64,000 nucleotides of DNA, taken from the NCBI GenBank assembly GCA_963693055.1, contig OY843751.1, forward strand, positions 5,920,001-5,984,000. The letters run 5' to 3'. Positions 49,339 to 64,000 of the stretch are shown here, piece after piece. Made by a program: the position numbers and the translations under genes. Source of the stretch: a bacterium. GTDB taxonomy: Bacteria; Zhuqueibacterota; Zhuqueibacteria; Residuimicrobiales; Krinioviventaceae. Below the pieces are notes generated by a model. That model saw only the letters and a list, made by a program, of their open reading frames with translations, did not search any database and was not told the DNA's origin. Every line of letters begins with the position of its first letter. Position 1 is the first letter of the stretch.

Positions 49339-49547
49339 GCTGATGCCTCTAAATTATAAAAAAGAACCCTATTAACACTTTTCATCAAGTCAAAAACCGT
49401 TTGCTTTCATTTTCTTAAATTTGTATACTATTCTGTCAGATAATTTGTCAATAGCCGGGCCAAGCCCTTTCTTTAATATCTCCATGGGTAAAAACTCTTT
49501 TCCAATCAACATCTATCACTTTTAGATTATAATTCAAGTAGGATAAT

Positions 49548-50693
49548 TTGAAAAAATTGTTACTGACCATTTTATTGGCAGGTTTATGTAATATGGTGTT
49601 GGCACAGACCAATATCATGGATAACACAAATAATCTTGCTAAAGACCCCACCAACATGGATCAACTCCATGAGGGTGATATTGCTATCGTCTTTACCACA
49701 AATGCCACGCCATACGATTTATACAGTGCAACTCTGGTGCTATATAATTTTTCGCCAACGATTTCGGATGTCACATTTAGTATAAAGCTGGCAGATGGTA
49801 GTAATGTGCCAACAGGCTCTGTTTTAGCCTCTGAAACCTTTAATAATCAAGCAATTCCATCTACTGCGGCTTATAAAACTTTTACTTTTTCCACTTTAAA
49901 CAGCTACGCCTTTGATGCAAATACAAAGTACGCGCTAGTGGTAAGTACAACCGGGACTGCGTATAAGATTGATTGTGACGGTGTATTGCTGCCAACATCA
50001 AGTTATTATTCGGTTAACCGTACCTTACTTTATGATACGAGTTGGAACGATTTTAATTATTTTGCAATCCGGGTTATGGGCACTGAAGGCTCTCTTCCAG
50101 TAGAGCTTTCTACCTTTACAGCGAGCAGCAATGGCTCATCTGTGAATTTAGCGTGGGCAACCGAATCCGAAACAGACAACCTCGGATTCATTCTTGAACG
50201 CTCGAATGATAATAATTCGTGGCAAACCATTGCCTCATACCAGACCCATCCTGCCCTTAAAGGACAAGGTAACACATCGGATCGAACAAATTACTCTTTT
50301 ACAGACAAGATGGTAGAACCCGGTAATACTTATTTTTATCGTCTCTCGGATATCAGCACAAAAGGTGAAACCTCGGATTACACTTCTTTATCCGTTAAAG
50401 TGGACAAACTTCCGGAAACTACCGAAATGGAAAATGCGTATCCCAACCCATTCAATCCACAGACAAAGATTGCTTACAATCTGGCAATTGACACAAATGT
50501 AAACATAACCGTGTTCGACCTGTTGGGACGACAGGTGAAATCCCTTTTTAATGGAAACCAGACTGCCGGCAGTCATCATGTCTACTGGAATGCGATGAAT
50601 GAAACCGGCAGCACTGTCCCCAGCGGTTGTTACTTTATCCGGATGCAAACAGAAAACTCTACACAGATGCAAAAAGTCCTGTTGATGAAATAA
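49548..50693 (+). CDS. Secreted beta-sandwich protein with LPVEL linker and FlgD-Ig/T9SS-type C-terminal domain, paralog A
   Basis: Signal peptide, LPVELS.F, W.TESE.DNLGF, AYPNPFNP...DLLGR.V...W...SG.Y; gapless paralog of 54508-55653. Confidence 0.85.
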   Translation: MKKLLLTILLAGLCNMVLAQTNIMDNTNNLAKDPTNMDQLHEGDIAIVFTTNATPYDLYSATLVLYNFSPTISDVTFSIKLADGSNVPTGSVLASETFNNQAIPSTAAYKTFTFSTLNSYAFDANTKYALVVSTTGTAYKIDCDGVLLPTSSYYSVNRTLLYDTSWNDFNYFAIRVMGTEGSLPVELSTFTASSNGSSVNLAWATESETDNLGFILERSNDNNSWQTIASYQTHPALKGQGNTSDRTNYSFTDKMVEPGNTYFYRLSDISTKGETSDYTSLSVKVDKLPETTEMENAYPNPFNPQTKIAYNLAIDTNVNITVFDLLGRQVKSLFNGNQTAGSHHVYWNAMNETGSTVPSGCYFIRMQTENSTQMQKVLLMK

Positions 50694-50729
50694 GGGATTA
50701 TTACAAAACGGTCGCCAATTTAATTTACA

Positions 50730-50760
50730 GATCGTGACGGAGATGATCTTCGTCACGATC
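50730..50760 (+). repeat. 31-bp REP-like palindrome, copy 1
   Basis: GATCGTGACGGAGATGATCTTCGTCACGATC. Confidence 0.9.
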
Positions 50761-50845
50761 TTAATAAAAAGAAATTTCTCATAGATTTTCCCCTGATAAC
50801 CAAAATGTTTATACGATGCATTTTAAATGATCAAAATAATTCCCG

Positions 50846-51202
50846 TCACATTCTTAAATCCAAATCCAGTACAATTTTAATATTTTCTATCACTTTTGAG
50901 ATTTTTTATGCTGGTAACATCCCAACTCTTTTTATCAATCTTTTATTATCAATAGCTCTTATCTGATCAATCATTAAATCGCAATTCTCGTTTACATTTG
51001 CTGTGCCTCTTTCAATATGTACCCGCAAAACATCTGATTTTATTGTAACCTTTGTAGTTATTGGGCAAATAATTGTAGAGAGATGATCAACTTTATTCAA
51101 CAGGTCTGTCAGTAATATAGCTACCGGTCTTGTTTTACCGGGTTCTGTACTTATCTGAGGATTTAGATCAGCTATCCAAATTTCGTATTGCTTAACCGTC
51201 AT
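50846..51202 (-). pseudogene. MazF/PemK toxin with premature stop
   Basis: EIWIADLNP...EPGKTRP, ICPITT, DQIRAID. TAA at 50906-50908 is followed in frame by KISKVIENIKIVLDL, the expected final helix. Confidence 0.8.
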
Positions 51203-51421
51203 AATCTATATCCTCAAACTCTTTTAATACTGTCACAGATTCGTCCCTGACAAATAAAGATTCCTTTGCAAGATTTTCCTCTATAATTTTTCGCTTTTGC
51301 AGCTTGTTGTAAAGTTCAATAGCCTCATTAATATATCGATTTCCGGGCTTTTTATGTCTGTTACTATTTGTTCAACATCTACAAAAATATCATCATCAAG
51401 CTTTAACGATATAGTTTTCAT
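51192..51421 (-). pseudogene. Cognate RHH-type antitoxin, frameshifted
   Basis: MKTISLKLDDDIF... shifts frame near the T5 run at 51349-51353. The other frame gives NRYINEAIELYNKLQKRKIIEENLAKES...EFEDIDYDG*, overlapping the toxin start. Confidence 0.75.
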
Positions 51422-51687
51422 AGTATATCCTTTCAGTATATACATAACTGACAAAAATTAAGGCATACGAATTATAATAAAAAGTCAATATTAATTTTAC
51501 AAAAACCTGATTAGCAAAAGTATTCACTTCGACATCCGAAACTGTACGAAAAAATGTTTATTTTATTGCGATGAGACGAGATATTGTATATATTAAAGAG
51601 TATATGTATTTTAAAAATTTAACAGTTCATCAATGCAAACATAATTAATCTCAACATAATTTTCAATCCAAATTTAAAGGATCGAAT

Positions 51688-52749
51688 ATGAAAAAAATCA
51701 AGGGAAAAGGTAATGTAACCAGACGTCAATTTATTGGAACTGGTACCGCAGCAACTGTCTTGACTGCGGGTGTATTGACTTCAAGTTGTTCTTCCAAACC
51801 AACACCAATGGCTACCGGTGTCGGAAAACCCAACTCTAAATTTGGCGGTGTTCAGATAGGTGCCTCAACTTATAGTATTCGTGGAATCAATCCATCAAAT
51901 GTGGACGAACTGTTAAAAGCCTGTATTGAGGCAGGCCTGAGTTCTATAGAATTCAGACAAACAAACCTTGCTGAAGAATGGTGTGGCGCACCCAAGGCTT
52001 TAAGACCCCCCATTAGACCCGGGCAAAGAGGATATGAACGGTTCAGAGCTCAACAAGAACGTGATTTAACAGAAGAAGAATATGCCGATCTTGAAAAAAA
52101 GGCCGCAGATTCAAGAGAAGCCTTAAAACAGTGGCGTTTATCCGCTCCCATGGATAAATTTGCAGAACTTGCCCAAATGTACAGGGCTGCCGGGGTAGAC
52201 ATCCACCTTATGAAATGGACCCCGGGCAGCTGGTCACTGGAAGAAATTGACTATGCATTCAAAGCTAACAAAGCCATGAATGTAAAGGGAATTACAGAAG
52301 AAATGAGACTGGAAACAGCCAAAAAAATGGGCCCGATTGCCGAAAAATACGGTTTGTATGCCGTCATGCATAACCATTATCAATACGCAGAAGAAGGATT
52401 CAACGTAGAAGATATTCTTGCCGTTTCACCAAGTATCATGTTGAATTTTGATGTTGGCCACTATTGGGGTTCAACCGGCATTAACCCCTGTGATTTCATT
52501 GAAAAATATCATGATCGGATTTACAGTTTGCACATCAAAGATAAAACCGGTCTCAATACAGAGCCACCCAATGCAAACCAGGTTTGGGGACAAGGTGATA
52601 CACCGTTAGAAGAAATATTGTTACTGATTAAAAACAAATATCCTCAAATCTATTGCGACATCGAACTGGAATACAGGATCGCTGCCTGGTCAAATTCTGT
52701 CAAGGAAACCAGAACCTGTGTTAACTATGCGCGCAATATTTTAATCTAA
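51688..52749 (+). CDS. Tat-exported sugar phosphate isomerase/epimerase (xylose isomerase-like TIM barrel)
   Basis: TRRQF, GVQIG..TYS, HNH, FDVGH, HIKD, IELEY. Confidence 0.85.
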   Translation: MKKIKGKGNVTRRQFIGTGTAATVLTAGVLTSSCSSKPTPMATGVGKPNSKFGGVQIGASTYSIRGINPSNVDELLKACIEAGLSSIEFRQTNLAEEWCGAPKALRPPIRPGQRGYERFRAQQERDLTEEEYADLEKKAADSREALKQWRLSAPMDKFAELAQMYRAAGVDIHLMKWTPGSWSLEEIDYAFKANKAMNVKGITEEMRLETAKKMGPIAEKYGLYAVMHNHYQYAEEGFNVEDILAVSPSIMLNFDVGHYWGSTGINPCDFIEKYHDRIYSLHIKDKTGLNTEPPNANQVWGQGDTPLEEILLLIKNKYPQIYCDIELEYRIAAWSNSVKETRTCVNYARNILI

Positions 52750-52772
52750 TACTGTACATTTACCTCTAGTAT

Positions 52773-52803
52773 GATCGTGACGGAGATTATCTCCGTCACG
52801 ATC
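52773..52803 (+). repeat. 31-bp REP-like palindrome, copy 2 (perfect)
   Basis: GATCGTGACGGAGAT-T-ATCTCCGTCACGATC. Confidence 0.9.
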
Positions 52804-53110
52804 TTTCAAATTAACTTTTTTACAAAAGGCTGGCTGATACGGCCTACCCTCCCAACAACAATCTCTACAACTCGATTTACCGGTATAGCTTTTCATTCAC
52901 AAGACTGTTAAATACTAAAGCCGCTCTGTTTACCCTTTGACACATCAGACCGAGTAATTATTAAAATTTTCAATTCTCCTGTTGTTTTTTTATCATACAT
53001 TATATATTTTAAATGCCAGTGTGTTATTTTCAGAAATACTGGTATTCAAGAAAATCTTAGAAAACCATCTATTATATTGTTTTCCGTTCTTTAATTAAAC
53101 AGGAGTAAAC

Positions 53111-54190
53111 ATGGAATCTATCCGGAACGTTATTGACTATACGGTATTCAATAATTCAGTCGGTCAATATCTACTGCTCAGCGGCGCCATTGTATTGGCA
53201 ATTATAGTAGGCAGGATTGTCTATTTTTTCTTTAAAACTTCTCTGCGCAGAATCGCACAAAAATCAAAAACCAAATTCGACGACTATCTCATTGATATTA
53301 TAGAGGAACCCATCGTTCTGCTGATCGTCAGTGGAGGCGTTTGGGTTGGGGCCCGGTTTCTGACACTGAACGAAGGCGGAATCAAATTCTTTCATAATGT
53401 AGTGATTACCCTGCTTGCCATTACCGCTACCTGGTTTCTGGTACGGTTCTTTGATATGCTGATCACCGCCTATATTGAACCGATAACCGAAAAATCAAAA
53501 AGCAAACTTGACGACCAGATCCTGCCCATCGTCCGTAAATCCGTAAAAACGGTTATTCTGGTCCTGGGAGGTATCATCATCCTGTCAAATCTGGGATATG
53601 ATATCTTGTCCATTCTGGCTGGCATTGGTATTGGTGGTTTGGCCATTGCCCTGGCAGCCCAGGATGCAGTCAAGAATATTATCGGTGGTATTACCATCTT
53701 TTGGGACAAGCCGTTCCAGATTGACGACTGGATTGAGATCAGCGGTAAATCCGGTTCCGTGCTTGAAGTAGGTATGCGAAGCACCCGTATCAAAACCGTA
53801 GGCGGCACGCATGTGGTCATCCCCAACAGCGCGATTGTGGATACCGTTGTGGAAAACTATTCCAAGCGCGAGCGACGCCGGATGGTGGTGAACATTGGTT
53901 TGGTCTATGAAACAACCGCAGATGATATGGATAAAGCCATGGATATTGTGAGAAAAACCATCGCTGATATTGAAGGTATTGACAGCGACGATACCGAAGT
54001 CAGATTTACCAACTTTGGTGCTTTTTCCCTTGATCTGGAAATTGTCTACTGGATCACGGACAGCAGTAACTGGAAGATCATTGTTCACAAGGTCAATATG
54101 GGTATCAAACGCAATCTGGATGAAGCCGGTATTGAAATGGCGTTCCCAACGGAAACCCATTATGTTATTAATCAGAACAGCGTGAAATGA
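53111..54190 (+). CDS. Small-conductance mechanosensitive channel (MscS family)
   Basis: GIGGLAIALAAQD..KN, KPF...DWI, G.RST, IPNS, GIEMAFPT. Confidence 0.93.
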   Translation: MESIRNVIDYTVFNNSVGQYLLLSGAIVLAIIVGRIVYFFFKTSLRRIAQKSKTKFDDYLIDIIEEPIVLLIVSGGVWVGARFLTLNEGGIKFFHNVVITLLAITATWFLVRFFDMLITAYIEPITEKSKSKLDDQILPIVRKSVKTVILVLGGIIILSNLGYDILSILAGIGIGGLAIALAAQDAVKNIIGGITIFWDKPFQIDDWIEISGKSGSVLEVGMRSTRIKTVGGTHVVIPNSAIVDTVVENYSKRERRRMVVNIGLVYETTADDMDKAMDIVRKTIADIEGIDSDDTEVRFTNFGAFSLDLEIVYWITDSSNWKIIVHKVNMGIKRNLDEAGIEMAFPTETHYVINQNSVK

Positions 54191-54507
54191 TCAATACCAT
54201 GCTTGACATATAAATATTTTATCGTATTTTCAGATATAGGATAAACCCGTCACTTATAAGCCCTTTTTTGCAGAGGCTGTTTATATTCATTGACCTGGTT
54301 AATAACCACTTGATTTCAGGTATCCGATACACCTCGGGGTATGCCTTGGTATATTTAATACTGGATTTTTTCCAGTGTGAGCTTGAAATATTTTAACCAT
54401 ACATAAAGAATTCCTGGTATAGGAGGGCCAGGCCATTTCGTAAAACAGGCAAAGGGTGGGAGCCCTTTACGATTAAAGTTATAAATACAACTTGAGGGAA
54501 AAATAAA

Positions 54508-55653
54508 ATGAAAAAAATTTTACTGACCATTTTATTGGCAGGGTTGTGTAGTATGGTGTTTGCACAGATTGAAATCATGGATAACACAGATAACCTTACC
54601 AAAGAGATCTGGGAGCTTGGTACTCACACTAATGGTGAAATTGCTATCATCTTTACGACTAACGCAACTCCATACAATTTACACAGTGTAACTCTGGTAC
54701 TCTATTCTTGGGCACCAGCTACTTCGGACGTTACATTTAGTATACAGCAGGCTTATGGCGATAATATACCAACAGGCCCTGTTTTGGCCTCTGAAACTTT
54801 TTCTAATCAAACTATTCCAGTTGTAGAAACCTATACAACCTTTACTTTTTCCAGTTTAAACAGCTACGCTTTTAGTGCAAATACAAAATATGCGCTTGTG
54901 ATAAGCACGTCTGAGAAGATTTCAATGTACCAGATTGACGGTATCGTGCTGCCAACATCAAGCTATTATACTGTGCACCATACCATACAATATGCTAGTG
55001 GTTGGTTCCCTTTTAATTCTTTTGCAATCAGAATAATGGGCACAGAGGGTGCTCTCCCCGTAGAGCTTTCTTCCTTTTCGGCAAAAAGTGAAAGCCGTTC
55101 CGTAGTTCTGGACTGGTTGACGGAATCCGAATCAGACAACCTGGGTTTTATCCTCGAACGATCAGATGATAACAATTCGTGGCAAACCATTGCCTCACAC
55201 CAGACCCATCCTGCCCTGCAGGGACAAGGCAATACATCGGACCGAACGGATTATTCTTTTACAGACAAGATGGTAGAACCCGATAAAACGTATTATTACC
55301 GTCTCTCGGATATCAGTACAAAAGGCGAAACCTCGGCTCTCTCTTCTGTATCCGTAAAAACAGACAAACTTCCTGAAACAACCGAAATGAAAAATGCGTA
55401 TCCCAACCCATTCAATCCACAGACAAAGATTGCTTACAATCTGGCAATTGACACAAATGTAAACATTTCCGTGTTCGACCTGTTGGGACGACAGGTGAAA
55501 TCCCTTTTTAATGGAAACCAGACTGCCGGAAGTCATCATGTCTACTGGAATGCGACGAATGAAACCGGCAGCAATGTCCCCAGCGGTTGTTATCTCATCC
55601 GCATGCAAGCGGGAAATACGACACAGATGCAAAAGGTTATATTGATGAAATAA
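54508..55653 (+). CDS. Secreted beta-sandwich protein with FlgD-Ig/T9SS-type C-terminal domain, paralog B
   Basis: Same length (381 aa) and architecture as 49548-50693, offset 4960 bp. Confidence 0.85.
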   Translation: MKKILLTILLAGLCSMVFAQIEIMDNTDNLTKEIWELGTHTNGEIAIIFTTNATPYNLHSVTLVLYSWAPATSDVTFSIQQAYGDNIPTGPVLASETFSNQTIPVVETYTTFTFSSLNSYAFSANTKYALVISTSEKISMYQIDGIVLPTSSYYTVHHTIQYASGWFPFNSFAIRIMGTEGALPVELSSFSAKSESRSVVLDWLTESESDNLGFILERSDDNNSWQTIASHQTHPALQGQGNTSDRTDYSFTDKMVEPDKTYYYRLSDISTKGETSALSSVSVKTDKLPETTEMKNAYPNPFNPQTKIAYNLAIDTNVNISVFDLLGRQVKSLFNGNQTAGSHHVYWNATNETGSNVPSGCYLIRMQAGNTTQMQKVILMK

Positions 55654-55692
55654 GGAAATTTTTCCAGTAGGTTTTGAAAAAACAGCTATTCA

Positions 55693-55723
55693 GATCGTGA
55701 CGGGGATAATCTCCGTCACAGTC
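55693..55723 (+). repeat. 31-bp REP-like palindrome, copy 3
   Basis: GATCGTGACGGGGATAATCTCCGTCACAGTC. Confidence 0.85.
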
Positions 55724-56058
55724 CTTTGTATTACGTACGCTATCATCCGGGGGACGGTTGTAAAAGATCACGGCTTTAAAATATCAACAATTCTCCTACC
55801 CAAATAACACTTTTGCGGGAGATTTTCTGTTTCTTTCAACAGACACCGGGAGGTGAAATCTTTGCTACCTCTAAAACAGAAAAAGACCGGATAAACCGAA
55901 CTGAAAGTACTGTCCAAGGGTGCAAGGCTTCGAATCCACCGATAGAGAAACAACATTCCCCGGTTTCCTCATAATACTTTTTCATTGATTCTTTAAAGAA
56001 ATATGATTAATTACTATTACTTTTTAACAAAATACCGATATATGTAAGGGATACCAGA

Positions 56059-57567
56059 ATGGATCTTCGATTGTATATACTCTGCCTTACCCTGTGTCTT
56101 GGGATGATTGCCACGGCTTGCTACGCTGAATCGACCCCGGATACAGCAACCCATATTGTTACTCTCAAACAGGCACATGTAGGCAGCCTGGAAATAGACT
56201 CGCTTCTTCTGGACAGTTTTGAACGTCTGCCGGAAGCACAACGCTCTTTTTACCTAAAGGCCCGTGAAATCCTTGCAAGCTGTCCTGACGCCACACTTAG
56301 CGATCCCAAAATCATCAAAGCCGCCAAAAAGGCCGGTCTTGCCCTCATCAGCGGACCGATGTTGGGTGATGTTTCAGAGAGCGATATTACCATCTGGTTT
56401 CGTCCGGTCCTTGCTGAAGCTTTGAAAGTAAATGTCACAGATAAAGAAGGAAATCAAAAGTCTTTCCCTGTCGAGGTTACCCAGCCCGGAGCGGCCACCC
56501 GGGTCAGGATTACCGGATTGTCGGCAAACACCCCATACCTCTACCAGATCGTTAACAGTGCAGGTGCTGTTTTAGGCAATGGCTCTTTTCACACTGCTCC
56601 TGAACCGAATACCACAGACACCATGCGCATTGCTTTTGGTTCGTGCTATCACAAGATCGGTGTTCACAATCCCAATTTGATGCGATTGATTGTAGAGCGC
56701 GGCAATCTTGCCATGCTGCTTTTGGGTGATATAGCAGTGGATGACCGGGAAACCAACACCCATATGCACTATGCCGATTATCTTTTACGAGACGTTTCAA
56801 AACCGTGGCGAACATTTTCTGCCAATATTCCGGTCTATGCCAGTTGGGATGATCACGATTATCTGAACAATGACAAATCCGGTCTTCAAAAAGGTCAGAT
56901 AACAAACATGCAGCGTAACGCGCTGCGGAAACTCTGGCAGGAAAACTGGGTCAATCCCCAGACGTCTGTCACAGATCGCGGCATCTATTTCAACACCGTC
57001 ATTGGCGATGTGGAAATCATCATGCTCGATACCCGCTCTTGCCGAAACTGGCAGAAACGGGAACAGCGCGGTTCCTACCTTGGTGATACACAAATGCAAT
57101 GGCTTTTTAAAACCCTCAAGGCATCCAAAGCCCGGTTTATCATTCTGACCAGCGGCACCATGTGGAGCGACTATATGTCCAAAGCAAAGGACTCGTGGGG
57201 CAGTTGGGACATTCCGGGACGAGAAGAGATCTATAACTTTATAGAAGAGAACCAGATAGGCGGTGTATTGCTTCTAAGTGGCGACCGTCACGGCGCACGC
57301 AGTTTCAAGATTAAACGGCCATCGGGTTTTGCGCTGCATGAATTTGAAGCTGCAACCCTGGGCGGTGTTCCCGGTCCGGACGCGTTTGCCCCGGACAAAT
57401 CGGCACAGCTCTTTGGATACAAAGGCGGATTGATCGCGTTTGGTGAATTCACTTTTGACATGAACAAAGCGGATCCCACAGTGACATTTCGCCTGATCAA
57501 TGAAGCTGGGACGGAGCTTGAAAAGCATACCTTTCGCTGTTCCCAGCTTACTCCTCAGAAACAGTAA
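56059..57567 (+). CDS. PhoD-like alkaline phosphatase / metallophosphoesterase
   Basis: FGSC, LGD, WDDHD, LDTR, LG..Q..WL, DSW, SGDRH; N-terminal Fn3/purple acid phosphatase-like domain. Confidence 0.9.
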   Translation: MDLRLYILCLTLCLGMIATACYAESTPDTATHIVTLKQAHVGSLEIDSLLLDSFERLPEAQRSFYLKAREILASCPDATLSDPKIIKAAKKAGLALISGPMLGDVSESDITIWFRPVLAEALKVNVTDKEGNQKSFPVEVTQPGAATRVRITGLSANTPYLYQIVNSAGAVLGNGSFHTAPEPNTTDTMRIAFGSCYHKIGVHNPNLMRLIVERGNLAMLLLGDIAVDDRETNTHMHYADYLLRDVSKPWRTFSANIPVYASWDDHDYLNNDKSGLQKGQITNMQRNALRKLWQENWVNPQTSVTDRGIYFNTVIGDVEIIMLDTRSCRNWQKREQRGSYLGDTQMQWLFKTLKASKARFIILTSGTMWSDYMSKAKDSWGSWDIPGREEIYNFIEENQIGGVLLLSGDRHGARSFKIKRPSGFALHEFEAATLGGVPGPDAFAPDKSAQLFGYKGGLIAFGEFTFDMNKADPTVTFRLINEAGTELEKHTFRCSQLTPQKQ

Positions 57568-57579
57568 CTGCTTTTTACT

Positions 57580-57610
57580 GATCGTGACGGAGAGTATCTC
57601 TGTCACGATC
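57580..57610 (+). repeat. 31-bp REP-like palindrome, copy 4
   Basis: GATCGTGACGGAGAGTATCTCTGTCACGATC. Confidence 0.88.
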
Positions 57611-57664
57611 TTTGATATTCCTATAATCGTTGAGAACAAATGATCAAAAAAGAAAAAACCATAA

Positions 57665-58258
57665 ATGAAAATGAATTTTAAAAAATATCTTGGTGAAGGG
57701 TTTCTAATTGTATTTAGTGTTCTTTTTGCCCTTTATATTAACAAAACATATGAAAAGGCAAAAACAACCAGCGCTAAAAACAATGCCATCAAACAAATCA
57801 AAGCAGAGTTGTTAGAAAATCAAAATACATTAGATGACTGGATAGCAGACCATAAAACTATACTCGAAAATCTAAACCATTTGATCGAAAGTAAAAATGA
57901 CAGTATTCAAATAATTGTCAAAAATAATAGTTATATACCTACACAAACCCTTTTAGCCAATAAAAATCTAATGAGCAAACCCTTGTCAAATTCAGCATGG
58001 AGTTCTGCCCAATCTATTGGAATCATATCAGAATTTGATTTTCAGACATTAAAAAACATTAACGAAACCTATGCATTGCAGCAGTTAATACTGGAAACCT
58101 CTATTGAAAAAATTGCGGAAAGATTTCTTTTAAAATCAAATGATGTTGAAAATACAAAAGCTCTGCTGATTGAATTCAGATTACGGTTCCAGAATTTACA
58201 AGGTCAGGAAACTAGATTACAACAGTTGTATAATGAAACAATCGAAATACTGGAATAA
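57665..58258 (+). CDS. Hypothetical protein, single N-terminal TM plus helical domain
   Basis: E..LIVFSVLFAL.IN, I..EL..N, AW motif; AT-rich coding sequence. Confidence 0.7.
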   Translation: MKMNFKKYLGEGFLIVFSVLFALYINKTYEKAKTTSAKNNAIKQIKAELLENQNTLDDWIADHKTILENLNHLIESKNDSIQIIVKNNSYIPTQTLLANKNLMSKPLSNSAWSSAQSIGIISEFDFQTLKNINETYALQQLILETSIEKIAERFLLKSNDVENTKALLIEFRLRFQNLQGQETRLQQLYNETIEILE

Positions 58259-58312
58259 ATTATTACATCAATATGGATCTTTCCAACTGCTCATGACGAT
58301 GAGCTCATTCAA

Positions 58313-58333
58313 GATCTTTGATATTCCTATAAT
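58313..58333 (+). repeat. 21-bp direct repeat (second copy; first at 57607-57627)
   Basis: GATCTTTGATATTCCTATAAT is identical at both sites. Confidence 0.85.
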
Positions 58334-58389
58334 ACACCTCCGTGTGGTAATAAAACACGTTATTAAAATTAGGTTAATGATTTATTATT

Positions 58390-59118
58390 TTGTTCAAGGA
58401 TTTTATTTTGAAAAGGTTTGATTTCAAAGTCGGTACTATTCCCTCGATTTTATGGGGAGAAAAATCAGAAAATATCTTTATAGCCATTCACGGGAATATG
58501 TCAAATAAAGCGGATGATGTAATTGCTATTTTTGCGCAAGAAGCGGTTAATTCGGGTTACCAGGTTCTAAGTTTTGATTTGCCAAAACATGGAGATCGTA
58601 AAAATGAAGCAACTCTCTGCAAAGTTCAAAACTGTGTCAAAGAGCTTGATGTCATATTGGAATACGCAAAATCAATTTCAAATAACGTGAGTGTCTTTGG
58701 TTGCAGTATTGGAGCGTATTTGAGTCTTTTAGCATATAAACATGAAGCGCTGCGACAAGCAATGTTACTGTCTCCAATTGTTAATATGGAATCCATTATT
58801 GTCAATATGATGAACATGTTTAATATAACAGAAAAAAGACTTTATGATGAAAAAGAAATTGCAACGCCCATCGGTGAGGTCCTCTATTGGGATTATTATT
58901 CCTTTGTTAAGGAACATCCAGTTGTTGAATGGAAAATACCAACCTCGATTTTATACGGATCAAAAGATAATTTGACAGCTCATGATACTGTTTCTTCATT
59001 TTCCCGCCGCTTCAATTCTGATCTGACAGTATTAGAAAATGGAGAACATTTCTTTCATACAGATGAACAATTATCTTTTTTTAGACAATGGCTCCAAAAC
59101 ATCTTACAGATCACATAA
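58390..59118 (+). CDS. Alpha/beta hydrolase
   Basis: IHG, FDLPKHG, GCSIG nucleophile elbow, YGSKD, GEHFFH; start uncertain. Confidence 0.88.
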   Translation: MFKDFILKRFDFKVGTIPSILWGEKSENIFIAIHGNMSNKADDVIAIFAQEAVNSGYQVLSFDLPKHGDRKNEATLCKVQNCVKELDVILEYAKSISNNVSVFGCSIGAYLSLLAYKHEALRQAMLLSPIVNMESIIVNMMNMFNITEKRLYDEKEIATPIGEVLYWDYYSFVKEHPVVEWKIPTSILYGSKDNLTAHDTVSSFSRRFNSDLTVLENGEHFFHTDEQLSFFRQWLQNILQIT

Positions 59119-59122
59119 TCTA

Positions 59123-59200
59123 AAATAACAAATGCATTCACCCAACCTCCCCGCCGCTCATGCAACTCAATAGGGTTGGCTGGTGATGCTGGTGTTAAAA
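59123..59200 (+). other. Integron attC-like recombination site
   Basis: AAATAAC...GTTAAAA ends; L boxes GCA-T-TCACC / GGTGA-TGC with one extrahelical base; inner CAACC/GGTTG; starts just after the stop codon at 59118. Confidence 0.7.
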
Positions 59201-59345
59201 ACAATCATACTCTCATCAACAGGATTTATATGAAAATCAACTTGCAACAATGGCTCCTGGTTCTTTTATGTGTTTTTTCAAATACAGCAATTCAAGCACA
59301 AGAGCGAACCCTTTCTGGAAAGTACATGACTGTAGAGGATACAAT

Positions 59346-60383
59346 ATGAAGAAAATCATCCCTTTATTACTCTTGATGTTAATCCCATATTTTGGTGTTT
59401 TGGCACAAACGGATTTGAAACCGATTACAGAACCCATCAAAATCATTTTTGACACGGATATGGGATCTGACTGTGATGATGTAGGAGCGCTGGCCCTGTT
59501 ACATACCTATGCGGATATGGGCAAGGTTGAAATTCTTGGATGTATCTATAGCTCGGGCAAAGTACCCTATGGTGCGGGAATTGTTCAGGCAATTAACATA
59601 TATTGTGGCCGGCCCCATATACCCGTGGGTGCGAACCATAAAGACGATGTTGGTGATACTGTGGATAAAATGAGTGCGGAAAAGCTGGCAAAAGACACCG
59701 CTGCTTTCGGGAACACGATTATATCCAACACCGATGCTGTTGAACAAACACAGCTGAACAGGAAATTACTTTTAGAACAGCCGGACCATAGCGTGACCTA
59801 TATTACCGTAGGCCATACAAAAGGATTGTATGATCTGTTGGTTTCGGAAGGAGATGCCATAACGCCTTTGAACGGATTGGAACTGGTCCGAACCAAAGTC
59901 CGTCGCTGGGTGGCTTTGGGTGCGCTTGGCGCAAACAATAAAAAAAGAGAATACACGCAAGACTGGAATTTCTTTAAAAACGGCACCGCACCATATACAA
60001 AATATCTAATCGATAATGTACCGGTGCCTATGGTTTTTGTGGATGCCGGTGCTGATGTGATGACCGGTAAATCCTTAAAGCAGACACCTGCTGGCAATAT
60101 CATCCGTACAGCCTATCGGGACTGGCTTTGGTGGTATGGCAAAAAAACACTTGATGACCAAAGGCCAAGCTGGGACCTGGCCACGGTCTATTATGCGGTT
60201 GAAGGCGTTGGCGGTTTTTTGATAAACAGCGGAACCGGCTATTTAGACTTTGATCCGGATAAAGGATGTAAATGGATTCCCGACAAGAACAAACACATGC
60301 AAACCTACATCAATCAAAAGGATGGTGTTGCAAAAGACTTTGCAGATTATCTGAACATGATGATTGCCAAACCCCGGGAGTGA
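59346..60383 (+). CDS. Secreted nucleoside hydrolase family protein
   Basis: Signal peptide from ATG 59346, IIFDTDMGSDCDD..AL, WN, SWD. Confidence 0.87.
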   Translation: MKKIIPLLLLMLIPYFGVLAQTDLKPITEPIKIIFDTDMGSDCDDVGALALLHTYADMGKVEILGCIYSSGKVPYGAGIVQAINIYCGRPHIPVGANHKDDVGDTVDKMSAEKLAKDTAAFGNTIISNTDAVEQTQLNRKLLLEQPDHSVTYITVGHTKGLYDLLVSEGDAITPLNGLELVRTKVRRWVALGALGANNKKREYTQDWNFFKNGTAPYTKYLIDNVPVPMVFVDAGADVMTGKSLKQTPAGNIIRTAYRDWLWWYGKKTLDDQRPSWDLATVYYAVEGVGGFLINSGTGYLDFDPDKGCKWIPDKNKHMQTYINQKDGVAKDFADYLNMMIAKPRE

Positions 60384-60485
60384 TGGATTGCGTTTTAGGG
60401 GATGATTCCTTTGAGTAATCCTCCGGGTACACCTCTCAGAGAAGATTTGATACGAGTCTCGAAACATGAACAGATAAAAAATCCC

Positions 60486-60516
60486 GATCGTGACGGAGAT
60501 AATCTCCGTCACGATC
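60486..60516 (+). repeat. 31-bp REP-like palindrome, copy 5 (perfect)
   Basis: GATCGTGACGGAGAT-A-ATCTCCGTCACGATC. Confidence 0.9.
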
Positions 60517-60866
60517 TTTTGGATTGAATACGGACGCTAAAGCTCAAAAAAGATATAGATAAAAACTTTAAACCACAGATACACTCAAGATAGTACAGTC
60601 CTTGACCCTCTACACAGTTTTTTAGTAAAAATGTATATTTTCCTATTGACTCTTTCCAAAAATATGATTAACTAAAATTATACCCGAAGTAAAATTTCAA
60701 TGTGCAATACAAGTTTTATAGCATAACATGTCATAATTCATTGTCAATAGGTTTAAGCAAAAAACTATTTTTACTTAATAGAATAATATGTGTATTCTAT
60801 TTCTGGCTAAAACTTGTTAAATACTATATTGGGCTTATCTCTGTTCAATAAAAATGAGGAACTATT

Positions 60867-63374
60867 GTGGTAGACTTTGACAAATTAAGAACCAAAAAGA
60901 AAAAAACCAAGGCGATAGAACCATCTGAAATTTTCCGTCGCTTACCGAAACCACCTGGAATCAATGATCTCTACACCAGTCAAGCTGAGGTACTTCATGC
61001 TTGGTTTAAAAATAGGCAAGAACGCGATACTGTCGTAAAGCTGCATACTGGTGGTGGTAAAACTCTGGTTGGCCTTCTTATGGCTCAATCAACGCTGAAT
61101 GAAACTTCAGAGCCTGTTCTCTATCTTGCTTCAACTGTCCAACTTGTTAATCAGACTATAGAAAAAGCAATCAGTATTGGCATAAACGCCGTCGCATACG
61201 AACGAAGACAGCCATTGAACGAAGACTTTATAAACTCAAATGCCGTCATGGTTGGCACATATAAGGCTCTATTCAATGGGCGGAGCAAATTTGGTCTTCG
61301 TGGAGATCCATTACCACAAAAAGTCTCAGCAGTCATCCTTGATGATGCCCATGCTGCCTTTTCCGTTGTACGCGAATCCTTTACGCTTGATGTCAAAGCC
61401 GAAGTGGATAGAGAAAGATATGAAAGTTTAGCTGATTTATTTCGAAAGGCATTTAAGGAAACAGATAAGATTGGGACATTTGATGATATCATTGCGGGAT
61501 CTGAATATTCTGTTTTGGAAGTTCCGTATTGGGCGTGGCATGAGCAACTAGATACTGTCCGTGAACAAATAAAATCAGATGCAGATAAATATGCTCTAGT
61601 TTGGCCACTTTTACGAGATCAATTGCATTTTTGTCACGCGCTAATAAGCCGTAATGCTTTCACAATTACACCGATTCTCCCGCTTGTAAATGCCTTCCCA
61701 ACTTTCTTTGATGCATCACGACGCATTTATATGTCTGCAACAATAGCTGATGATAGTGATATCGTTCGTACATTTGATGCGAATCCTGAAGCAGTGCAGA
61801 AGCCACTGACTTCTCGATCGTTAGCAGGCGTAAGTGAACGTATGATTTTGATTCCTGATCTGATGCCATTCAAATTCGATGTAACGAATGCAATCAAAAA
61901 AATTGTTGAATGGACTTCAAAGAATAAACTAGGAGCAATAATTCTTGTCCCGTCCGATAAAGCTGCAGAAAAATGGATAGATTCTGTAACTGTAGCAAAG
62001 GGGTCTGCCGAAGTTGAAAAACTTGTAGCCGACTTGCAGGAAAGGGCAACATCGGGACCAGTTGTATTTGCAAACCGATACGATGGCATCGATTTACCAG
62101 GCGATTCATGCCGATTGCTTGTTATGAGCGGTCTGCCTGCTGGTACATCAAATTACGAGTTATTTCGAGCAGCCGCTCTTTTTGGTGCTACAACAATCAA
62201 TAGGATGCTCGCCCAACGAATTGAGCAAGGCATTGGAAGGGGGGCCAGAGGCTCTGGGGATCATTGTGTAGTCCTTCTTGCTGGGGCAGACATTGCGGGC
62301 TGGGTGGCTAAAGACGCTAATTTTAAGCTTCTAACCAATGCCACAAGAGCACAAATTGAAATGGGTGCAGAGATCAGCAAAGAAGTAAGTGATCTTAAGG
62401 AGCTTGCACAAACAATTCAACGGAGTTTCGATCGCGATAAAGGATGGATTGAATATCACGCAGAAACTCTTGCTGAATTGGTGGATGAAGAGGCTCCAGA
62501 AGAATTACGATTTATACAAGCCGCTGGAGAAAGAAAAGCTTTTAATTTGTGGGTCGACGGCTATCATGAGCAGGCAATTTCGAAAATTGAGAAAAACCTA
62601 ATTAAAATAAATTCATTGGATTTACAAATTTGTGGATGGATGGAGCAATTAGCTGGTCGCATTGCCGATCGTTGGGGACATCCTGATCGTGCGGATTATT
62701 TCCAACGCCAGGCATATGCACATAACCGTTGCCTAACCCGTCCAAAAGTTCTACCCCCTTATCGTCGGTTATCAGCTCCTAGCGTACAAGCGATGGCTAT
62801 TGTAAATCAACTAATCGATTACCGGTTAAGACGAGGTTTTTTGCAGTCTTTTGAGGAAGTTGTTTCACATCTGCATCATAACTCCTCTGCTAGTCAATTT
62901 GAACAGGCTTTGGCCGATCTTGCCATCATGATCGGGCTTTCCTCTGAGAGACACGATATAAATGGCCAAGGTCCTGATGTATTATGGCTTTTGCCAGAAA
63001 AAATTGGATTTGTCATTGAAGCAAAAAGCCGTAAAAAGGAAAAAAATGCGCTTACAAAAGAAGAACATGGGCAACTCTTAGTCGCCGCCGAATGGTTTAG
63101 TACCAATTATAAAGGATACGAATGTGTTCGTGTGAGCGTTCATCCAAAAAATCAAGCGACAAAAGCCGCTGTTGCAGGTGCTTCACACGCTTTAACCTAT
63201 GAAAAATTAGCGCTTCTAGTCTCTGATTCCCGCGCTCTTCTTTCTACTCTTTCCGAATCACAACTATCCGCAGAAGACCTTGTGATAGAGTGCCAAAGGC
63301 TTTTATCGAATACATCATTAAGAGCTGAGCAAATTTCAAAGAATTATTTGCTTCCATTTAAAGAGATAGAATGA
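60867..63374 (+). CDS. SF2 (DinG-like) helicase with C-terminal PD-(D/E)xK nuclease; Hna-like anti-phage protein
   Basis: Q motif LYTSQ, HTGGGKT, LDDAH, SAT, YDGIDLP, QGIGRGAR; C-terminal GPDVLW...VIEAK. Confidence 0.75.
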   Translation: MVDFDKLRTKKKKTKAIEPSEIFRRLPKPPGINDLYTSQAEVLHAWFKNRQERDTVVKLHTGGGKTLVGLLMAQSTLNETSEPVLYLASTVQLVNQTIEKAISIGINAVAYERRQPLNEDFINSNAVMVGTYKALFNGRSKFGLRGDPLPQKVSAVILDDAHAAFSVVRESFTLDVKAEVDRERYESLADLFRKAFKETDKIGTFDDIIAGSEYSVLEVPYWAWHEQLDTVREQIKSDADKYALVWPLLRDQLHFCHALISRNAFTITPILPLVNAFPTFFDASRRIYMSATIADDSDIVRTFDANPEAVQKPLTSRSLAGVSERMILIPDLMPFKFDVTNAIKKIVEWTSKNKLGAIILVPSDKAAEKWIDSVTVAKGSAEVEKLVADLQERATSGPVVFANRYDGIDLPGDSCRLLVMSGLPAGTSNYELFRAAALFGATTINRMLAQRIEQGIGRGARGSGDHCVVLLAGADIAGWVAKDANFKLLTNATRAQIEMGAEISKEVSDLKELAQTIQRSFDRDKGWIEYHAETLAELVDEEAPEELRFIQAAGERKAFNLWVDGYHEQAISKIEKNLIKINSLDLQICGWMEQLAGRIADRWGHPDRADYFQRQAYAHNRCLTRPKVLPPYRRLSAPSVQAMAIVNQLIDYRLRRGFLQSFEEVVSHLHHNSSASQFEQALADLAIMIGLSSERHDINGQGPDVLWLLPEKIGFVIEAKSRKKEKNALTKEEHGQLLVAAEWFSTNYKGYECVRVSVHPKNQATKAAVAGASHALTYEKLALLVSDSRALLSTLSESQLSAEDLVIECQRLLSNTSLRAEQISKNYLLPFKEIE

Positions 63375-63389
63375 ATGGGCGAACATAGT

Positions 63390-63407
63390 CCGGCCCTCGT
63401 GGCCGGG
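63390..63407. repeat. 18-bp GC-rich palindrome, copy 2
   Basis: CCGGCCCTCGTGGCCGGG, 16 bp after the helicase stop. Confidence 0.75.
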
Positions 63408-63467
63408 AATTATTTTAAAAATCCCGGAGGTAAGCTCCGGGTTACTTAGCACTGGAAGGAAACATGT

Positions 63468-64000
63468 TTGACTAATATCACGAATAAAAACTCAGCTCCT
63501 CTGACTGACACTATCATAGTAGCACTATCGAAATTAGTGGACGATGCGCAGGAACAGACATATCGCGAGCCTAGCCACTCCGAAATTCAGACACAGATTG
63601 ATAGAGCCCAATTATCATCGTGCGACCCTAATCAACAGGGTCAAACGCTTGGAAAGGCAAAACGTGTTCGTGCTGTCCTAAACTGGGCTATTGAGAACAA
63701 TGCGGATGCAGGAGGTAGGTTTGTCTATGGACTACTCAGCCACATTAGGGGATGTGGAGGTTTTCGTGTAGAGTCTCCAAACTACGCTGGAGCAGATGCC
63801 ATTCGTGGTGCAGTTGAGGCCTTTAATACAGAGGGTTTCTTGTTGGGGTTTGACGGGGTTCTAAGTCGAAAGGTTCTTGATGGATTGTCTGGAAACGAAC
63901 TCACAGAGGCACTTGAGGGTTACGTACACCGCGCGAAAAAGGGGGTTGCGGATGCTGCCTTGCTCACCGGAACAAGTAAAGATCTATTGGAAGCCACTGC
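63468..64000 (+). CDS. Abortive-infection family protein (Abi_C/AbiJ-like), partial; runs off the window end and is not in the ORF track
   Basis: Manual translation from TTG 63468 (RBS GGAAGGA): MTNITNKNSAPLTDTIIVALSKLVDDAQ...GKAKRVRAVL...DAALLTGTSKDLLEAT, with no stop. The SK.LLE motif resembles the start of Abi_C. Confidence 0.65.
   Translation, partial: MTNITNKNSAPLTDTIIVALSKLVDDAQEQTYREPSHSEIQTQIDRAQLSSCDPNQQGQTLGKAKRVRAVLNWAIENNADAGGRFVYGLLSHIRGCGGFRVESPNYAGADAIRGAVEAFNTEGFLLGFDGVLSRKVLDGLSGNELTEALEGYVHRAKKGVADAALLTGTSKDLLEAT

Follow-up and report, generated by a model that had tools for sequence, protein, structure and literature searches.

The closest described relatives of the element considered here are repetitive extragenic palindromes (REPs) and the REP-associated tyrosine transposases (RAYTs) that adjoin them. 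As set out in the text of PMC6006769, RAYTs of subclass 2.6 (group 5 of Bertels) are proteins of ~179 amino acids (aa) that carry the motifs NH[LIV]H, WQ and YIH[QN]NP and an SS extension, and that are flanked by hairpins not of the GTAG type. The same source describes double-foot REPs, for which loss of the center of an inverted dimer is given as a possible origin. In Escherichia coli, the account in PMC3333891 has a REPtron replaced by hicAB, and cleavage occurring at a distance from the REP. The role of RAYTs in their hosts is described as an open question (PMC5581495); RAYT-driven gene diversification has been proposed, and its authors later reported no strong evidence either way (bioRxiv 10.1101/2020.03.09.984088). 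The element of interest here is a 31-bp palindrome that occurs five times between positions 50,730 and 60,516 of a 64,000-nucleotide (nt) stretch of a bacterial chromosome of the phylum Zhuqueibacterota (contig OY843751.1, positions 5,920,001 to 5,984,000; hereafter the window), where it punctuates a run of accessory genes.

These palindromes are quite probably members of a REP family with a GATC foot, one that shares an arm with single-foot copies at a RAYT of a sister species and was spread by this HUH tyrosine transposase. The 31-mer is read as a double-foot REP because single-foot hairpins with the same arm flank the intact RAYT in the sister species. Of the two readings offered in the initial annotation, made from the window alone, that of a REP-like family is supported, and is now tied to a RAYT by way of the single-foot copies. 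The double-foot form is already published; the GATC foot was not found in the REP catalogues searched. Nor was a GATC-footed REP found in the wider literature searched, of which the sequence figures of PMC3733652, parts of Table S1 of PMC6006769 and the bioRxiv supplements could hold one, and none of the 12 occurrences of GATC in that table stands in the foot column. With this family, GATC joins the known types of REP foot, and a RAYT clade to match it extends across a phylum that has been little studied.

In comparison with subclass 2.6 as described in PMC6006769, the likeness extends to a 177-aa HUH-Y1 enzyme with NHxH, WQ, YIHxNP and YSS motifs, to flanking non-GTAG hairpins with further copies in other parts of the genome, and to a long loop resembling that of the REP listed for ADY50670.1 in Table S1 of that source. 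The differences are that the foot is GATC, itself palindromic, that NHFH and YIHYNP take the place of the motifs NH[LIV]H and YIH[QN]NP, and that the enzyme has been lost from the genome that holds the window. The double-foot REPs of subclass 2.4 likewise have foot and stem on both sides and an origin by central deletion, but theirs is of the form GT[AG]G...C[TC]AC (PMC6006769), whereas here GATC accompanies a 2.6-like enzyme. With the REPs and bacterial interspersed mosaic elements of E. coli, as presented in PMC3333891 and PMC8266576, the family shares tandem mosaics around the transposase gene, replacement of a whole REPtron, and a location behind and between genes; unlike them, it numbers about 56 copies rather than hundreds, has no bulged stem, and has a perfect 31-bp palindrome as its majority form. 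The REPINs of Pseudomonas fluorescens are similar in being dispersed inverted REP doublets inherited vertically at most sites (PMC3116915), but the doublet here is collapsed to a 1-nt center and neither excision nor a clean empty site was seen.

The palindrome and its genomic family

The five copies in the window are located where the initial annotation had placed them (Table 1); none of 100 shuffles gave a match, and the first 50 kb of the window is free of copies, as had been noted. Each copy starts shortly past the stop of a plus-strand gene, the distances of 13-103 bp first given having been counted inclusively. The hairpin is strong (folding z=-7.5), and four of the five stem substitutions in the window do give G-T pairs on the plus strand; a sixth substitution, evident from the sequence, affects the loop-closing pair of copy 4 and gives G-A. 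The proposal built on these pairs, that the hairpin is kept as a strand-specific structure, fails when 48 copies in tandem context from both genomes compared below are counted, with 23 G-T against 30 A-C pairs on the transcribed strand (p=0.41); this count and that of T-tract polarity use crude calls of open reading frames (ORFs), and orthologous copies among the 48 are not independent. The T tract reported after each copy is present, but is only 2-4 T long, and the genes between copies are mostly unrelated, as stated, with the exception that copies 1 and 3 follow paralogues. The window has no Y1/RAYT or tyrosine recombinase match, the palindrome is without attC boxes, and the spacing of 1887-2920 bp differs from the 20-70-nt spacers of CRISPR arrays, in all of which the initial annotation was accurate.

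The window lies in a complete chromosome of 6.535 Mb (genome G000, contig C1), which was compared with a sister species of the same genus (G001), about 89% identical in the region of the window. When as many as 6 mismatches to a degenerate consensus are allowed, the symmetric 31-mer has 38 copies in G000, five of them in the window and none inside an ORF of at least 120 aa. Mapping of the genomic copies, a check the initial annotation had proposed, indicates that clustering in variable DNA is real: 18 of the 38 have another copy no more than 5 kb away, where 4.8 would be expected, and ten are found no farther than 14 kb from two tRNA genes. With origin and terminus placed by GC skew, 36 of the 38 are found within 1.2 Mb of the origin, a threshold set post hoc that takes in 37% of the chromosome.

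A further ~18 copies, the genuine ones among 24 matches to a loose pattern (six were judged spurious), have a single foot, bringing the family to about 56. Here a GATC foot is followed by a 10-bp stem, a loop of 12-13 nt and a right stem that lacks the second GATC, with GATC on one side only; REPs are typically built in this way, a hairpin being preceded by a foot of four nucleotides. Both forms share the 15-nt arm, and the commonest left arm is identical in the two. The foot is GATC or GATT rather than GT[AG]G, which places the family outside the GTAG-type REPs. The single-foot matches stand foot-first on the lagging-strand template in 20 of 24 cases (p=0.0015), and 15 of the 18 genuine copies do so when counted by hand; a preference for this template is stated for the Y1 transposases of IS200/IS605 in the text of PMC6006769.

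The exact family pattern is found in two of 41 related genomes, namely G000 and G001. The synteny comparison involves these two genomes only and used ~2.0 of the 6.5 Mb of G001, with eight collinear chains that cover 1.93 Mb of G000 and yield 157 gaps of at least 300 bp. Three of the 38 symmetric copies fall outside the aligned ranges, and 27 of the remaining 35 occupy the same orthologous site in both species. Four cases with both flanks and no copy were considered as empty sites; in these, either the copy had decayed or the match was to a paralogous repeat.

G000 also holds several more REP-like families, as well as other RAYT-like loci that are broken. A GTAG double-foot palindrome with 13 genomic copies flanks a RAYT-like gene at C1:373200-373700 (locus L002). 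A second cluster of the GATC family, with four copies, stands beside tRNA-Lys(CTT) (G000 C1:5598663-5612702; G001 C3:1940028-1950421); this tRNA gene is inverted between the two, and G001 carries repeated fragments of the tRNA 3' end.

A RAYT flanked by single-foot copies in the sister species

The initial annotation had suggested looking for a RAYT gene flanked by copies, and one was found in G001, with the single-foot form on both sides. The gene is intact and encodes 177 aa (NF047646, 116.4 bits, the cut-off being 80). The DNA around it, to a distance of 1.5 kb, contains 15 hairpins of the family and 7 of a related partner, all single-footed and arranged in tandem and inverted mosaics. Residues H60, H62 and Y137 are invariant in 13 homologues, such that the HuH and catalytic tyrosine motifs are present, and the protein carries NHFH, WQ, YIHYNP and YSS; the first and third of these each differ from subclass 2.6 at one position, and several homologues have YIH[QN]NP. 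A profile search gave the E. coli TnpA-REP structure 4ER8 as the best solved relative. A single-sequence search of the PDB had returned no match, and the profile was required.

Homologues at E<=1e-40 occur in 48 of 167 genomes of the phylum. In the case of the closest (genome G053, 59% identity), the gene is accompanied by a homologous hairpin in which the loop is the same and the foot is GATT. Of five genomes, G001 alone was matched by a degenerate pattern for the inner loop, though the G053 hairpin is homologous on inspection, and a single-sequence scan of genome contigs with the RAYT recovered only G001 and one distant match. In a tree of 34 proteins, comprising 30 phylum loci and four others drawn from ~85 listed phylum matches and 80 metagenome loci, and built without published reference members of the subclasses, the G001 RAYT falls in a clade of 22 rows with support of 98/99. 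Read by eye, 17 of these 22 rows have at least one hairpin with a GAT[CT]G foot. When the GATY foot is labeled automatically the label changes 7 times on the tree, against 11.5 for shuffles, by a rule that mislabels some rows (two spurious positives and several single-copy negatives). At loci L219-L242, from across the phylum, many RAYTs belonging to one clade are flanked by hairpins whose stems vary and whose foot is GAT[CT]G, a foot class that was not encountered in the catalogues searched.

No intact cognate enzyme was found in the genome holding the window. None of its seven NF047646 matches, at five loci, is adjoined by the GATC-footed family, and the best tblastn match of the G001 RAYT is 41% over 49 aa. 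The orthologous position is instead occupied by TIR, SLOG-patatin and ThsB-like genes, with a small REP remnant nearby. At this locus (L253, G000 C1:4902500-4906050), genes for a ThsB-like TIR protein, a SLOG-patatin fusion and a TIR-TPR protein replace the whole REPtron of G001, and together they form a Thoeris-like defense cassette with a phospholipase effector. For testing how a 2.6-like enzyme reads its guide, the single- and double-foot forms offer two naturally occurring substrates, and the sister species, one with the enzyme and one that has lost it, two naturally occurring hosts.

From these features a sequence of events may be envisaged. The double-foot form would have arisen by central deletion of a head-to-head REP pair, making it readable on either strand. 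The RAYT would nick single-stranded DNA near a folded hairpin, mostly on the lagging-strand template, and thereby seed copies, and these would persist where they are harmless or useful, behind stops and between convergent genes, as 3' hairpins of RNA. The cluster in the window would stand in a variable island next to the tRNA-Gln 3' end, in which genes may come and go by several routes, including tRNA-targeted integration, insertion of insertion sequences (ISs), arrival of a former integron cassette and short-homology events. The hairpins would then be long-lived landmarks beside gene gain and loss, rather than a dedicated cassette site.

With respect to transcription, convergent spacers hold 12 of the 38 symmetric copies, as against 248 of all 2537 spacers, and divergent spacers hold 3 of the 38, as against 454 of 2537. 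The copies thus favor the 3' ends of genes. A role as putative terminators is plausible.

Gene gain and loss near the copies

Alignment of related genomes had been put forward as a means of locating breakpoints, and the closeness of the copies to breaks in synteny between G000 and G001 is real. Of 35 copies, 8, 12 and 20 are at most 10, 30 and 200 bp away from the edge of a gap of at least 300 bp, as against 5.7, 10.3 and 24.9% of matched intergenic positions (n=437). The corresponding counts are 10, 14 and 25 of 83 for single-copy hairpins, and 2, 4 and 6 of 10 for other repeated hairpins, which are indistinguishable from the GATC family. In 7 of the 157 gaps, both species hold a copy inside the unaligned DNA (table 138/7/5/7; odds ratio 28, p=5e-6). 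This pairing is family-specific and extends to the single-foot form (3 of 4), with no cross-family association in the unaligned gaps. Ancestral copies thus likely outlast their neighbors, since copies are paired across species in DNA that no longer aligns.

Among the copies in the window, the second and fifth are common to both species, with both flanks of the second alignable. At copies 1 and 3, the corresponding interval of G001 also contains a copy, and its flanks on either side are unrelated, scoring at random level; some of the other five paired gaps keep weak homology. Copy 4 forms the left edge of a 1742-bp segment missing from G001, and the alignment stops 2 nt into its 5' foot. Overall, offsets of gap edges from the palindrome run from -60 to +87 with no fixed crossover point, and by hand count the edge is at most 4 nt from the end of the palindrome in 9 of 23 near gaps. 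Multi-copy IS-like inserts account for 5 of the 23. No gap segment next to a copy was found relocated (0 of 10 and 0 of 15, G000 side against 2.0 Mb of G001). A 42-kb inversion relative to G001 (G000 C1:6076778-6118638) has copies at both junctions in G001 and inverted IS-like ends in G000. In assembled contigs of three sequencing runs of the same sample, the joints had sides of 21-23 letters and were repeat matches; run X4 repeats the G001 junction.

Could the RAYT itself direct the exchange of genes? Cleavage and strand transfer at variable distances from the REP would swap accessory genes, the copies serving as loose two-sided landing sites and their clusters growing into arrays. For TnpA-REP, the authors of PMC3333891 propose that genes flanking it are captured, and a number of the present observations fit such a role: the enrichment near gap edges and the clustering of copies, the seven paired gaps with their lack of cross-family association and the random-level flanks at copies 1 and 3, the nine edges close to a palindrome end, the segment that begins at the foot of copy 4, a 21-bp direct repeat that brackets the 197-aa gene within it, and the copies at both ends of the 42-kb inversion in G001. 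However, edges that snap to the end of the palindrome are also expected from alignment alone, which tends to end at a conserved GC-rich island within diverged AT-rich spacer, and the scatter of the offsets, the absence of relocated segments and the equal closeness of other repeated hairpins to breaks weigh against directed exchange. In addition, some gaps have another cause at hand, namely the IS-like inserts, an att-type duplication at a tRNA and the inverted IS-like ends that flank the 42-kb inversion in G000; the enzyme is missing from G000, and only two genomes are compared. Directed exchange is therefore an unlikely, though not negligible, explanation, and the same low degree of belief attaches to the idea of a loose, HUH-driven analogue of the integron, in which a double-foot REP keeps the site while the RAYT swaps accessory and defense genes on both flanks. 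Were the copies actively to direct gene exchange, RAYTs would have a host function, and accessory-gene arrays a new way to form. What the data show is an association between copies and gene exchange.

The remaining alternatives dispense with the RAYT. Ordinary terminators or RNA-stabilizing hairpins, copied by gene duplication and conversion, would account for a strong hairpin located behind a stop codon at every copy in the window, for the excess in convergent spacers, for one copy 120 bp behind a tRNA, and for the 4963 bp that separate copies 1 and 3 behind paralogues 4960 bp apart; yet arrays around a RAYT contain the identical arm, which varies together with RAYT homologues, the orientation of the single-foot form follows the replichore, and there is neither U-tract polarity nor G-U bias, making this explanation improbable. 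Binding sites for a chromosome-organizing protein, of the parS, Noc or SlmA type, would explain the concentration of symmetric copies near the origin under the post hoc threshold, but sites of such proteins often fall in genes, where none of the 38 copies is found. Moreover, a second REP family is also origin-proximal in 12 of 13 copies, though three other families are not, the origin of G000 has separate sites that we take to be parS-like from their motif, and the family is limited to one genus among the 41 genomes searched; such a function is more improbable still. Integrons and integrase-less attC clusters consist of co-oriented accessory genes with attC sites, and the initial annotation had raised the possibility of a recombination site that assembles gene cassettes into an integron-like array. 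On this reading, a dedicated recombinase would act at the 31-bp site and add a single gene for each copy of it. The likeness extends to a co-oriented run of unrelated genes punctuated by one repeat, to species-specific genes that adjoin copies, and to one attC-like site inside the block. Against this, no integron integrase scores above cut-off in G000 or G001 (best 81 against 265 bits, TIGR02249), the closest match to a tyrosine recombinase lies at a distance of 1.6 Mb, the four intervals that the copies delimit contain 1-3 genes each with leaders of up to ~560 bp and one gene on the opposite strand, and many copies are solitary. With four shared genes in conserved order in G001, no fixed crossover and none of 25 segments relocated, this half of the original proposal is abandoned as having next to no probability.

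The reading of the palindromes as a RAYT-spread, GATC-footed REP family has its own difficulties. No symmetric copy was seen inside the REPtron array of G001, such that the link between the double-foot form and the enzyme rests on the shared arm. The GATC foot is not universal in homologues, because one metagenome homologue (L138, 51%) keeps the inner stem-loop and has no foot, and another (L137) has an unrelated hairpin with no GATC foot. A comparison of 84 copies yielded no clean empty site for the 31-mer alone, so that its own mobility is putative. As for the copies being passive landmarks, they do lie nearer to breaks than single-copy hairpins, at 200 bp only (20/35 against 25/83, p=0.007), the control of other REPs comprises 10 members only, and the paired copies in unaligned gaps fit an active role as well as passive retention. 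With regard to a role as terminators, for which support is weak, the T tract shows no polarity genome-wide (3.52 against 3.35 T in 8 nt, 48 copies), and terminator-like calls were obtained for 3 of the 5 window copies only.

The variable island at tRNA-Gln

The copies of the window stand in a variable island that extends past the window end and lies between blocks conserved with G001 (Table 1). The island holds 6 copies in G000 and 7 in G001, and a degenerate sixth copy in G000 is located at C1:5984477, 477 bp beyond the window end and 120 bp from the 3' end of the tRNA-Gln(CTG) gene. In G001, a 1.8-kb insert has on each side a copy of the 3' end of this tRNA and of the ~145 bp that lead from it to the palindrome, a duplication that is the usual mark of tRNA-targeted integration. 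Genes for the TIM barrel, MscS, PhoD and nucleoside hydrolase proteins are common to both species, with their order kept. Those specific to G000 are the two secreted paralogues, a MazF-like module, the 197-aa gene, the alpha/beta hydrolase and a helicase of type PDC-S28, and G001 has five other genes in the island.

Table 1. Features of the island, in window coordinates (C1 coordinates where so marked).
Feature	Position	Strand	Remarks
Variable island	49364..64000, running past window end		between blocks conserved with G001, from the G001 comparison
Secreted protein paralogue 1, Por/FlgD-type C-terminal sorting domain	49548..50693	+	not in G001 block
Double-foot REP copy 1	50730..50760		36 nt after stop of secreted-protein paralogue 1; 1 mismatch
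PemK/MazF-like toxin gene of toxin-antitoxin type	50906..51202	-	not in G001 block
Xylose-isomerase-like TIM barrel	51688..52749	+	shared with G001
Double-foot REP copy 2	52773..52803		23 nt after TIM-barrel gene; 0 mismatches
MscS mechanosensitive channel	53111..54190	+	shared with G001
Secreted protein paralogue 2	54508..55653	+	74% identical to paralogue 1; not in G001 block
Double-foot REP copy 3	55693..55723		39 nt after secreted-protein paralogue 2; 3 mismatches
PhoD-like phosphatase	56059..57567	+	shared with G001
Double-foot REP copy 4	57580..57610		12 nt after phoD; 2 mismatches
197-aa gene, no assigned family	57665..58258	+	30% GC; G000-specific
Alpha/beta hydrolase	58390..59118	+	34% GC; not in G001 block
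Solitary attC-like site	59126..59197	+	AAC...GTT ends, L-box-like inverted repeat, one unpaired base
Nucleoside-hydrolase-like gene	59250..60383	+	shared with G001 from 59324
Double-foot REP copy 5	60486..60516		102 nt after nucleoside hydrolase gene; 0 mismatches
DEAD/ResIII helicase	60867..63374	+	PADLOC candidate defense system PDC-S28, 936 bits; not in G001 block
tRNA-Gln(CTG)	C1:5984597-5984668	-	right border, ~600 bp beyond window

The alpha/beta hydrolase gene is probably a former integron cassette, derived from a real integron elsewhere, because a solitary attC-like site follows it. The motif by which this site is called is one that we take to be that of attC, and it was partly tested, with a folding z-score of -1.4. 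Stretches similar to the site occur at G000 C1:2573316 and 981668.

The 21-bp direct repeat around the 197-aa gene (57607-57627 and 58313-58333) is unique in the genome and starts at the 3' foot of copy 4. The nucleoside-hydrolase-like gene probably has its true start downstream of the longest ORF start. A signal-peptide-like frame of ~39 codons, read by eye at 59231-59350, stops where the G000-specific segment has its right edge, and resembles the scar of a deletion. An antitoxin-like frame at ~51170-51420, on the minus strand and upstream of the MazF-like gene, appears to be split by a frameshift. In the case of the helicase, a diverged copy is present on another contig in sequencing run X4.

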